A stretch of DNA of 57,913 nt, filler included, from Dugesia japonica (taxonomy: Eukaryota): the NCBI GenBank assembly GCA_001938525.1. It is 5 parts of 5 records of this genome, joined end to end, with 100 filler letters (N's around TTAATTAATTAA, not from the genome) between each part and the next. Parts side by side here need not be neighbours in the genome. Positions count along the whole stretch, not along the records: positions 46,365 to 57,913 come from MQRL01646881.1; 4 more parts are not named here. One strand, given 5' to 3'. Positions within the stretch are counted from its first letter, which is position 1. The number at the start of each line of letters is the position of its first letter. This document shows positions 46,365 through 57,913 of this stretch, piece after piece. Below the pieces are notes generated by a model, which worked only from the letters and a program-made list of their open reading frames with translations, was not told the DNA's origin and made no database searches. A program made the translations under genes and the position numbers.

Positions 46365-46449
46365 ATCTTCACTGGAAAACTAAGTATAACTATTTTTATT
46401 TAAATAAGGAAACAGATGAGATGTTAGATGATTTATTCGATTGATGAAA

Positions 46450-47905
46450 ATTTATTTTCTCTGAAAAAAACTTTAATTCTTTTTATTTCTTTTTCAATTG
46501 TTCTAATTGACCAATTTGATTTTAATATTTCTGGATAATTATTAGCTAATTTATAAAATTTTATAATTTTATTTATATAATTAATTTTATAGTTAATTCC
46601 TATTTAATGTAAATGGTCCAAGATTTGACAATTACTATTAAATTTAGTTTTTAATAAATCAAAGAAATAACCCAATTTATAAAGACTTATTAATGTTATT
46701 CTTTTTCCTATATTTAAATTATTATACCAACATTTAATATTAATNNNNNNNNNNNNNNNNNNNNNNNNNNNNNNNNNNNNNNNNNNNNNNNNNNTCCTAT
46801 ATTTAAATTATTATACCAACATTTAATATTAATATAAATATTTTCTAATGTTTCATCTTCATATTTTATTTGTTTTTCTGGTAACATTATTACATCATCT
46901 AAATTAAATAATTCTGGATTAATACGATTTACTAGTGAATTAGAAAATTTATGATAAAATTCAATATCTTGTATGGAGTCATTATCATCTTCGATTTGAG
47001 ATGTAACATTTTGAGATATTACATCTTGAGATATTACATCTTCTATTTCAGGTGTTACATTTTCTATGGGTCTCTCTGGGGCTTGATATGTTTCATCTTC
47101 AATTTCAGGTATATTATCTTCGATCTCAGATATTTCATCTAAAGTTTTGATTTGTATGGAGTCCTACTCTGCTATTTGGATTTCTTCTTCAAAAGTAGGA
47201 TGATGAATTTGTTTATCTTTTTTTAAAGGAACTTTTTTAATTGAAGATGGTAATGGCATTTTACTAGGTGTTTTCTTTTTTAATAGAATAAATGAATCAA
47301 CATCATTTTCAAGTTTTTTCATCAGTTTTATTAAAACCAATCATATCACCATTTATAAACATATTATCTTTTTTTCTTTTTTCTTCATANNNNNNNNNNN
47401 NNNNNNNNNNNNNNNNNNNNNNNNNNNNNNNNNNNNNNNNNNNNTGATATTTACATTTTTGACAAGATATACAAAATAAATCTTCCATCGACATAGCCTT
47501 TTTATTATTAAATAATTTAATGTTACGCGAACACTTATTATCTTTGAAATATTTTTTAATCATTTCTAAATAATATTCATCATTAATTTTTATTTTTAAT
47601 ATATTAAGTTTTCTATTACGTATTATCTCTTTCTTTTTATATTTTTTAATTTCATTTCCAATTTTAATTAAAAATAACAAATCTTTTTTAGGTGGTTCAG
47701 TTTTAAATATTAAATCACCAACAGAACCATTATTATTTTTTTCAAGTATAATATGTAAAAATTCTCCATTTACTTCTTTTGTTATAAATAATCTTTTTAG
47801 TTGTTTAACTAATTTATCATTCACTTTTTTAATTCTTTGATTTATTTTTTCTTCACCACATTCACATTCAAATTCGCATAAACAATCACTTTCTGAAGAA
47901 AACAT
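46450..47905 (-). pseudogene. Viral protein of unknown function with Cys-rich start and acidic repeat tract
   Basis: ORF 47309-47905 continues after a frameshift into ..EIEDNIPEIEDE..PEIEDVISQDVISQ.. and a helical C-terminus (LYKLGYFF..FYKLANNYP). Confidence 0.5.
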
Positions 47906-47995
47906 CTTTTTTATATAAAATTATTTTAATCACATTAACTTTTCGCATGCGAACAATTAGATTGTACATTTTAGATTTTATATTTATTTGCTTTA

Positions 47996-56200: not shown

Positions 56201-57563
56201 GTTTTTTAGTAAGAATATTTGTGTATGTTTCAAAATCTCCAATTATTATAAATGGTAATTTATTTTTTTGATAATATTTATTAAAGAAATAATAATCATT
56301 ATATTCAAAAACAATGTTATTTGGCTTGTGTCTAATACATGCATCTTGATGTTTATTTAAAACTTCTATACTTGAATAGCAATTCATACAACCAAAGCAT
56401 AGATAGTTTGCATTTCTACTTGGTGATGTGAAAAACACAGTTATATCTCTACATAAAACATAATGATCTTTATATACTAATAAATTACATTTATTTTCTT
56501 CTGGTGTTGGATTTCTTGTATAATGTGAAATATGAAATGGTTCAAGTTTTTTATTTCCATCTACACCAAACACATTAATTTGATAATTATTTAATTTTTC
56601 AAATTTACTTATATCATCAATTTTCATTGGAAATTCAAAATCTTCATATTTTAAATCTGTTAAATGAGGAATGTAATTACTTACACATGTAGGATTACAA
56701 TTAAATTATTTATGTGCTAATATTGAATATAGAAAACATTTGTTATCTTTATTTTCTATATTAATTACTCCTGGTTTTCTAAATGGTAATTTACAATATG
56801 TTGCACCTACTAATGATTGGTATTTAGAAAGATCTTATGTAAAATCTAAAATGTGTGACATTGCCCATCCCGAACCTTTTCTATCTTTATCTTCAATATA
56901 TTTTTCTAATTCATCAAATATTTCATTAGTATAATTTTCAATTACACTTTCCATAATAATTCTTTTATTGATTGAATAAGATGTAAAATCTCTTTCAACA
57001 TATTCATTATTTATTGTTTTTCCATATCTTCAATTAACTGACATACTTACAACAATCTGTTTTGTAAAATTAAAATACTTAGTAATTATTTCTTTAACTT
57101 GATTATAAAATATGTTAAGATCTCTAATTGGTTCTTCAAATATTTATTCTACATTTAATTTCATTTCTACTTTTACACCTTTTAAATATTTAATTTTATA
57201 ATCTTTATATTTACTTAAAATATCTTTAATTTCTAGTTTAAAATTAGTTGCTTCTTCACCTGGTAATTGATTAAGTAACATGTTTTTATGTTTATCAGAA
57301 TTGTAATGAGTTCTTGCATGATTTTGCCTTTGAAATCTTTTGTTACATATTTCACAGAATAATGGAACAATTTCATGATTTCCACATCTTGATCCATTTA
57401 AATGTTCTTGTAAACTATTTTCTGAATTGAATTTTTTATGACATGATACACATTGAAATTCATCATTTACTATATAATATTTTCTAAATCTTTGATGACC
57501 TTTTAACCCAGCTAGATTTTTAAACTCCTTTTGACAATTAACACATTTAAATATAGTACTCAT
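53218..57563 (-). pseudogene. Protein-primed family B DNA polymerase polyprotein (C2H2 fingers - terminal-protein region - vOTU-like - EndoVII/exonuclease - polymerase with intein); several stops and frameshifts
   Basis: Three C2H2 fingers are in frame (through a TAA at 57144) with GSGW..GATYCKLP..INIENKDNKCFLYSILA; IIGDFET; CYYC..KDHNH.GEFRGWACNKCN; KELFPYEY; motif A YLDENSLYASCM; motif B KLMLNAFYGKTLEN; split motif C YSD/TDS; KGVKK, YDDKR. Confidence 0.93.
53681..54254 (-). other. Mini-intein (~191 aa, HINT domain, no homing endonuclease) in PolB motif C
   Basis: Block A SVTADTPIIL directly after YSD; block B VDVTQDHSLL (TxxH); blocks F/G VYDI(K)LEDGSFNCGFPLIIKN followed by extein TDSIFVE. 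One extra T at ~53732 shifts the last ~17 codons. Confidence 0.95.
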
Positions 57564-57913
57564 TTTCTAAAGGAATAATTTAATCCTCTTATTTATTTTT
57601 TATATTATTTCCTCTTAAATGTTATTCCTCTTAAAAATATATATTTCATCAAACATGTTACATGTTACATAATAAGCATTGTGCTCATATGAGTAATGAC
57701 AACCTACACATTTAACACTTTTTATTCTTACACTAAACAATTAACAATTATCACTAAATTTTTGGAGTTCTCCATCTACTTATATTTCATGAAACATGTA
57801 ACATGTTACATTTTAAATAAGGGGTGAATTTCATTAACATCTTTCATTTAAAATATTTCATTAAAATGTTACATTTTATTAGGTACAGTAATGTATACTT
57901 AAAGTAATTTCGT

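Follow-up and report, generated by a model that had tools for sequence, protein, structure and literature searches.

What kind of element occupies the last part of a 57,913-nt stretch of Dugesia japonica DNA (assembly GCA_001938525.1; hereafter the window), and what is the insert that splits the catalytic motif of its DNA polymerase? The locus, positions 46,365 to 57,913, is a single piece, positions 1-11549 of the 11,682-b contig C646881 (MQRL01646881.1; GC content 0.22). It belongs to a high-copy Polinton/Maverick (adintovirus) family; this genomic copy is decayed, and its virion module is an ordinary one. An initial annotation had described this module and overlooked the insert, which lies in the polymerase gene (PolB) at 53681-54254. 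We assign a probability of roughly 80% to the following reading: the locus is a decayed Beta-type Polinton whose polymerase carries an intein at the site YSD/TDS, predicted to be self-splicing and likely spread among copies by homing.

At motif C of the polymerase (the pol-c site), the frame runs through KIHYSD, is interrupted by a 574-nt insert of about 191 codons on the minus strand (beginning SVTADTPI and ending GFPLIIKN), and resumes with TDSIF. The encoded segment displays Ser1, a TxxH motif at residues 80-83, a Lys-Asn end and Thr+1 (junction IIKN/TDS). It scores 35.8 bits against the intein model TIGR01445 (cut-off 24.5), which sister copies also match above the cut-off. Its PDB match is the Nanoarchaeum NEQ068 (E = 0.002), which we take to be a split polymerase intein. 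Ser1, a residue not imposed by our search pattern, was present at 56 of the 59 occupied sites, and the block-B Thr and His positions held their commonest residue in 52/53 and 52/54 copies, respectively. Counts of the terminal Asn and +1 Thr are partly circular, because the search pattern demanded these residues. A spliceosomal intron was ruled out: the insert is in frame in unbroken copies, carries splicing-domain motifs, and has an empty form that exists as DNA. The insert is thus precise and scores as an intein (class 1, pol-c site), it occupies about half of the family's sites, and its splicing is predicted.

The assembly searched comprises 854 Mb in 648,594 contigs and is very fragmented. 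Exact-pattern searches counted 311 occupied and 329 empty sites (reversed-pattern controls gave 0), figures that are exact-match lower bounds and may count haplotypes twice. The loci that were fetched included 46 empty alleles, 33 mini-inteins (521-650 nt), 10 long alleles (887-1,041 nt) and 15 unresolved cases, in a set that is biased by the search; one further locus (L193) was left out because the end of its intein had been called wrongly. Contigs with the empty-allele joint (53680-54256) were also found in an independent data set, and five RNA reads stop matching at 54254. Long alleles matched LAGLIDADG_3 with 39.3 bits (cut-off 22.5) and Hom_end with 23.7 bits (cut-off 21.1). Two LAGLIDADG motifs are legible in several of these alleles and eroded in others, and the window holds a mini-intein without endonuclease. 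Some occupied copies lie in open frames of more than 1,200 codons.

The different parts of the intein have evolved under different constraints. Pairwise ratios of nonsynonymous to synonymous substitution (dN/dS), taken over non-independent pairs and driven towards 1 by decay after insertion, were 0.43 (0.32-0.56; 55/56 rows) for the N-terminal splicing part, 0.23 (0.10-0.44; 43/43 rows) for the C-terminal splicing part, and 1.21 (0.80-1.97; 32/33 rows) for the linker of the mini-inteins. The exteins gave 0.36 and 0.49 (72/79 and 78/79 rows). Because the splicing parts are under purifying selection, we infer a need for the splicing domains for as long as these lineages were replicating.

The distribution of the intein among copies does not follow the history of the polymerase around it. 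For 53 copies placed on a tree built from the two distal flanks, 12 changes between empty and occupied states were required, of which starred branches force at least 8; one divergent clade was empty in all six of its copies. Among 35 occupied copies, a 9-copy clade (versus the other 26, chosen from the distal-flank tree) was recovered by each flank alone with support of 100/100. The intein tree needs 8 changes, and the two-subfamily split is rejected there (approximately unbiased test, p = 0.0005). The between-clade excess of third-position differences was 0.10-0.20 in most of the distal segments, 0.03-0.05 on the N-side beside the site, and about 0 in the intein. The extein tree was redone with an identity filter that dropped 7/79 N-extein rows and 1/79 C-extein rows; a first version, with four long, probably non-homologous rows, was discarded. 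The history of the intein is thus uncoupled from both flanks. Together with the dip beside the site, this is the pattern that homing with short co-conversion would leave.

Relatives of the intein point to its source. An intein-only search gave 55 matches, mostly to RNA-primed-type PolBs, including that of Bodo saltans virus (50% over 61% of the query). With a profile, 1,885 matches were obtained at E <=0.001, the best 150 of which were examined. Classified by best match, 203 intein-bearing proteins comprised 162 giant-virus-type PolBs, 14 topoisomerases II, 23 unclassified proteins and four protein-primed polymerases. Among the best 80 of 492 relatives in IMG/VR, 64 were giant-virus-type PolBs, 12 topoisomerases II and four unclassified, and none was in a Polinton-type polymerase. 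The four protein-primed family B polymerases (pPolBs) with an intein at the same site (P0002, P0004, P0123 and P0134) come from public assemblies. In a 67-row intein tree, the 15 unbroken D. japonica inteins formed a clade (100/98) that was nested, together with three pPolB inteins (95/93), within giant-virus inteins, in a topology whose bootstrap had not converged and whose backbone is weak; the fourth pPolB intein stood apart. The intein of P0004 looks like an independent gain. In this unrooted tree, entry into Polintons from a giant-virus polymerase is the most likely origin.

The closest intein belongs to the Alpha-type polymerase P0123 (58% over 350 aa to a long allele), whose exteins gave no BLAST match. 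The closest exteins, those of P0001 and P0003 (38% identity), are both free of inteins. Since the nearest intein sits between unmatched exteins and the nearest exteins have no intein, the intein appears to have crossed between Alpha- and Beta-type Polinton polymerases, the direction being inferred. Four giant-virus-type PolBs (P0032, P0116, P0121 and P0124) carry two or three inteins; in P0032, motif C holds two related inteins that almost adjoin each other. Members of the same clade are found in topoisomerase II as well, at the site DQD/TDG.

Several observations weigh against an intein that splices and homes. Near 53730, a stop (codon 175) and a frameshift disrupt the intein of the window, and with its polymerase broken too, this copy cannot be functional. 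Where the canonical penultimate residue is His, this intein has Lys; Lys occupies this position in 72 of 160 delimited giant-virus-type relatives, so His is not essential for this intein clade. The C-terminal model PF14890 gave 16.2 bits, under its cut-off of 35.8. Transcript coverage, a check proposed in the initial annotation, was sparse: three RNA runs (6-25% of each scanned) held 1, 40 and 2 reads at 85% likeness to the element and none at 95% or more, and none of the reads at 85% fell inside the intein interior. The lower-bound site counts and the weak backbone of the intein tree belong here as well. Finally, distances on the two flanks correlate at only 0.41, and chimeric contigs in a fragmented assembly could add mosaicism.

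The subfamily signal holds on both flanks, dips immediately next to the intein and is lost nowhere but within it, which argues against the alternative that survives best, and which we regard as unlikely. Here the intein was gained once in an ancestor, and its scatter reflects repeated precise loss with ordinary recombination or gene conversion, with no endonuclease homing. Change counts on the tree would allow this, as they do not distinguish gain from loss; the moderate flank-to-flank correlation and the single clade of D. japonica inteins are also in its favor. Ordinary crossovers, however, would uncouple the two flanks as well, and this alternative must also face the intact-looking LAGLIDADG motifs still present in several copies and the divergent subfamily that is entirely empty.

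Far less probable is a real intein whose apparent movement is an artefact of assembly, with chimeric contigs arising from collapsed repeats. Such chimeras would need two template switches, at both intein ends, in many contigs with matching flanks. The contigs are indeed short, and one of them (L043) shows an occupied start and an empty site together, yet the copies differ by 9-25%, enough to be assembled separately, and the empty joint was seen again in the independent data. We give hardly any weight to a non-splicing Hint-like remnant or ordinary insertion tolerated in already dead copies, for which the Lys residue and the PF14890 score could be cited, since the insert splits the catalytic motif of an essential enzyme in hundreds of occupied copies, some of them with long open frames, and purifying selection acts on its splicing parts but not on the linker.

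Returning to the homing intein of a Beta-type Polinton, we propose the following course of events. In established class-1 chemistry, splicing proceeds by an N-O shift at Ser1, attack by the +1 residue and cyclisation of Asn. In active elements, the shift, aided by the block-B Thr and His, would be followed by the attack of Thr+1 and by Asn cyclisation, restoring YSDTDS; motif C would be rejoined and a working polymerase would result. Empty alleles sharing a nucleus with full-length ones would be cut by the LAGLIDADG endonuclease of the latter and then repaired with an occupied copy as template, thereby acquiring the intein and about 60-150 nt of flank. Loss of targets would relax selection on the endonuclease, giving eroded alleles and then mini-inteins of about 190 aa. 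Mini-inteins such as that of the window would be inherited or passively copied only.

An intein in a fish Maverick has reportedly been seen before, which the main text of PMC8097293 does not confirm. Within the published texts available to us, no intein in a Polinton polymerase is mentioned apart from a single sentence suggesting that intein invasions gave rise to the nuclease inserts of Polinton pPolBs (PMC11161782, citing PMC10748475); an earlier mention in supplements, Repbase, InBase or the two founding Polinton papers is possible. The word intein is absent from the main texts of PMC8502044 and PMC8097293. According to a review, metazoan genomes have no inteins (PMC8529194), and the classified viral inteins described in the accessible text of another study belong to four giant-virus families, with others in unclassified viruses (PMC5784728).

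Inteins at the same site occur in Mimivirus PolB and in archaea, according to the available part of PMC549080, which also describes the NEQ068-type site. The junction is YGD/TDS there and YSD/TDS here; Ser1, the block-B Thr and His, the terminal Asn, Thr+1 and, in long alleles, the LAGLIDADG endonuclease are shared. Unlike the pol-c inteins of that account, the one in D. japonica sits in a polymerase that is protein-primed and belongs to an element integrating into the genome of an animal, it has full, decayed, mini and empty alleles in hundreds of copies within one genome, and its penultimate residue is Lys.

Mobile-endonuclease-like inserts of the HNH and VSR types have been described in Polinton pPolBs (PMC10748475, PMC11161782), without the word intein in the available text of PMC10748475. 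Those are nuclease domains for which these texts, as far as accessible, describe no splicing domain, whereas in D. japonica Hint splicing motifs and a LAGLIDADG endonuclease occur together with precise junctions and an empty allele. The inteins of Anaeramoeba (PMC10710043) offer another parallel, being numerous in a eukaryotic nuclear genome, linked to viruses and spread within the genome. In that protist, as the available text has it, 45-103 inteins lie in host genes and Polintons are unmentioned; in D. japonica, one allele lies in a virus-like element.

The element that carries the intein is a Polinton proper. PolB (53218-57563, minus strand) matches the zf-C2H2 family of Pfam, Endonuclease_7 (26.7 bits, cut-off 23.6), and DNA_pol_B_2 (PF03175, protein-primed family B polymerase) with 46 bits (cut-off 25.8), reaching 62 bits in a sister. 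These weak PF03175 matches of 46-62 bits, versus 111 bits for the Alpha-like P0123, suggest a Beta-type PolB when read with the description in PMC8502044. The endonuclease-VII (His-Me finger) domain within PolB, at 55890-56005, is common among relatives. An rve integrase, which is missing from the window, was found in sister contigs with the identical array (43.1 and 33.8 bits, cut-off 32.6). The initial annotation had spoken of a Polinton-like virus. Such viruses in the strict sense mostly lack pPolB and rve integrase, as the accessible text of PMC5499653 puts it; both are in this family, so that label was rejected.

The initial annotation had placed the major capsid protein, packaging ATPase and integrase beyond the left contig break, and sister copies bear this out. 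In sister C529426, the region absent from the window encodes a double-jelly-roll capsid protein (PF21738, 53.8 bits, cut-off 27) and an ATPase (Pox_A32, 44.7 bits, cut-off 22.8); capsid, integrase and ATPase are all encoded on the other strand from PolB. Of the ATPase, which is cut by the contig start, the 24 C-terminal codons lie in the window (46367-46438, plus strand) and are identical (100%) to the ATPase end of C529426. The order of genes from PolB to the acidic protein was as first described, abutting and on the minus strand with one more small open reading frame (ORF) at the end; the ATPase tail on the plus strand shows that the array is not all on one strand. The same order recurs on other contigs, which links the ORFs and speaks against an origin from unlinked loci.

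Next to PolB, at 52644-53209, lies a frameshifted gene for a basic, pX-like core protein that combines G-x-G-I-Y-L repeats with a hydrophobic stretch, GGFAFLAAIPAII, and is kept in 9/9 aligned copies. It is followed by a conserved Polinton protein in two pieces (51831-52647; 72-75% identity to one 316-aa sister ORF), the penton gene (51157-51834; 79% identity to that of the unbroken sister L012) and a putative adenain/Ulp1-type maturation protease with an open frame of 140 aa (50724-51146). The long fibre-like protein (48696-50731), in at least four pieces that match sister ORFs, has an N-terminal DAVNLKYI motif and three tandem repeats of about 180 aa, spaced 536 and 574 nt. A central hydrophobic-hairpin protein, predicted to be membrane-associated, is encoded at 47996-48604 (64% identity to a sister ORF; a weak DUF2207_C match of 18.2 bits, under cut-off, was seen in a sister). 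A Cys-rich/acidic protein in pieces (46717-47920; a single 358-aa ORF in sister L029) and a small conserved but broken ORF (46436-46884; 82% identity to another ORF of L029) complete this minus-strand array. The penton, protease, pX-like, fibre-like, hairpin and acidic proteins matched no Pfam family above cut-off, PHROGs gave nothing useful for the array proteins and no family for the fibre-like protein, PDB profile searches with the protease and the pX-like protein found no match, and a phage collection yielded one weak match. The pX-like and fibre names, which follow a motif likeness to adenovirus-type proteins, therefore draw no support from Pfam, PHROGs or PDB.

Two of the assignments can be stated more firmly. 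The penton profile matched "penton [Hydra adintovirus]" (E = 4.9e-6; four matches among 4,231 candidates). A single-sequence model of the window's penton piece had a predicted local distance difference test (pLDDT) of 34; that of the unbroken sister, built on an 11-row alignment, reached 78. The sister model matched the mavirus penton with E = 5e-8 and the Sputnik, PBCV-1 and mavirus pentons with Z 12.2-12.6 (root-mean-square deviation 2.5-2.9, 129-134 residues aligned), Sputnik being at Z 12.6, 2.5 and 134. A single-jelly-roll penton fold is thus confirmed at the level of the model, in agreement with the first assignment; the adenovirus penton base gave Z 7.9, and the description of the module as adenovirus-like was overstated. 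Meanwhile, the protease scored 0.96, by language-model features, to Peptidase_C5 clusters of an atlas (PF00770 on 62% and 19% of their members), and its His, Asp, Gln and Cys motifs are kept in 9 aligned copies. By these features and the catalytic motif, it is classified as adenain-like. The early recognition of Polinton/adintovirus hallmark genes therefore holds, with pPolB, penton and adenain-like protease in the window and capsid, ATPase and integrase in sisters.

This gene set is like that of Beta adintoviruses as described in the available text of PMC8502044: a divergent pPolB, rve, A32/FtsK ATPase, double-jelly-roll capsid protein, penton and adenain-like protease, with terminal inverted repeats and many genomic copies in an animal. 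What differs is the intein in PolB and a fusion of phospholipase A2 (PLA2) with the integrase beside a Beta-type PolB. In C529426, a single ORF (L134:3130-4497) next to the Beta-type PolB encodes a fusion of a parvovirus-type PLA2 domain (32.8 bits) with the rve integrase. PLA2 genes are tied to the Alpha virion module, and the opposite chimera has been reported, in the accessible text of PMC8502044.

Rearrangements also occur among the sisters. One of them has the pX-like, conserved and penton genes turned round together (L134:9270-10000 and L135:511-2402), and in another the protease gene alone is inverted (L141:1434-1859). A variable accessory slot lies between the hairpin gene and the ATPase (L010:1717-2633; L139:4541-5338; L032:3-635).

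The right end of the locus is a non-coding element end, the terminal inverted repeat region (57564-57913, no strand assigned). In the contig tail, the AGT-starting terminus would lie about 15 b past the window's end, followed by a (TAATA)n microsatellite; the same AGTAAT start is found in sisters L011 and C529426. A terminal inverted repeat of the kind sought in the initial annotation is present in C529426, whose two ends share 190 nt at 84% identity; none was found in two other sister contig pairs. Polinton target-site duplications are 6 bp long. The window holds a single element end and the sister ends adjoin AT microsatellites, which bears on the recognition of such a duplication. These AT-rich microsatellites (C646881:11565-11682, L011, L134:850, L135) consist of (TAATA)n repeats at two copies, whereas a third copy has (TTA)n or (TA)n, which suggests a target preference; they may also be the cause of contig breaks. 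Terminal regions of L038, L041 and L042 contain arrays of 14/28-nt tandem repeats that differ in length between copies. An Id-like helix-loop-helix gene (E = 2e-12) lies about 250 b outside the AGTAG terminus of a sister copy; therefore, the family is integrated in an animal genome.

The copy in the window is not a young virus. Compared with sister ORFs, 7/9 minus-strand genes contain stops or frame changes, leaving the protease and hairpin genes open, and the PolB frame has at least four frame changes and at least four stops relative to unbroken sister frames. Searches for sister copies scored the best 40 of each of 8,921, 6,902 and 2,060 candidates, among which the top long matches to the element were 76-90% identical. 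The best alignment among 144 fetched reached 91% over 613 nt. Given the broken genes, the nearest other copies at 83-91% identity, with none above 91%, and the sister repeat arms at 84%, the initial view of a relatively recent lineage was abandoned and a recent intact virus rejected.

Elsewhere in the window, at 29010-30216, lies another Maverick, which is more decayed and whose penton starts differently. Its separate lineage, proposed from the outset, was upheld: it was unmatched by penton, protease and pX queries, and only the integrase query of the intein family matched it (46% over 59 aa). Its integrase ends in a piece that, by its motif, is chromodomain-like. More distant Polinton PolB fragments (9327-10588 and 18352-18540) share 27-37% identity with the intein-bearing family. 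A host exon at 27075-27728 resembles the MutL/MLH3 C-terminal endonuclease domain, a likeness that we assume on the basis of a DQHAAHER motif. Gypsy-type retrotransposon remnants, with protease, reverse transcriptase and RNase H pieces recognized by eye, are found at 1668-4214 and 12269-16752.

These findings have implications for the biology of Polintons in animals. At least 311 sites in one animal genome have an intein-type junction, although they belong to an endogenous virus-like element rather than to a host gene. Since alleles of four states (empty, full, decayed and mini) coexist, the life cycle of a homing endonuclease becomes measurable within a single species, and natural Ser1/Lys-Asn mini-inteins of about 190 aa may serve protein engineering. 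Homing needs donor and target DNA in one cell; therefore, the path of the intein would link giant viruses with two classes of Polinton polymerases, and the intein, as a contact tracer, supports a virus phase for animal Polintons. With less confidence than for homing itself, we favor a broader scenario in which a LAGLIDADG intein derived from giant viruses invaded an animal Polinton pPolB, jumped between Alpha and Beta types, and went through a full cycle of invasion, decay and loss across hundreds of copies. If this is true, protein splicing would have been essential for the replication of these elements in animal cells, and Polintons and giant viruses would have met inside the same cells.

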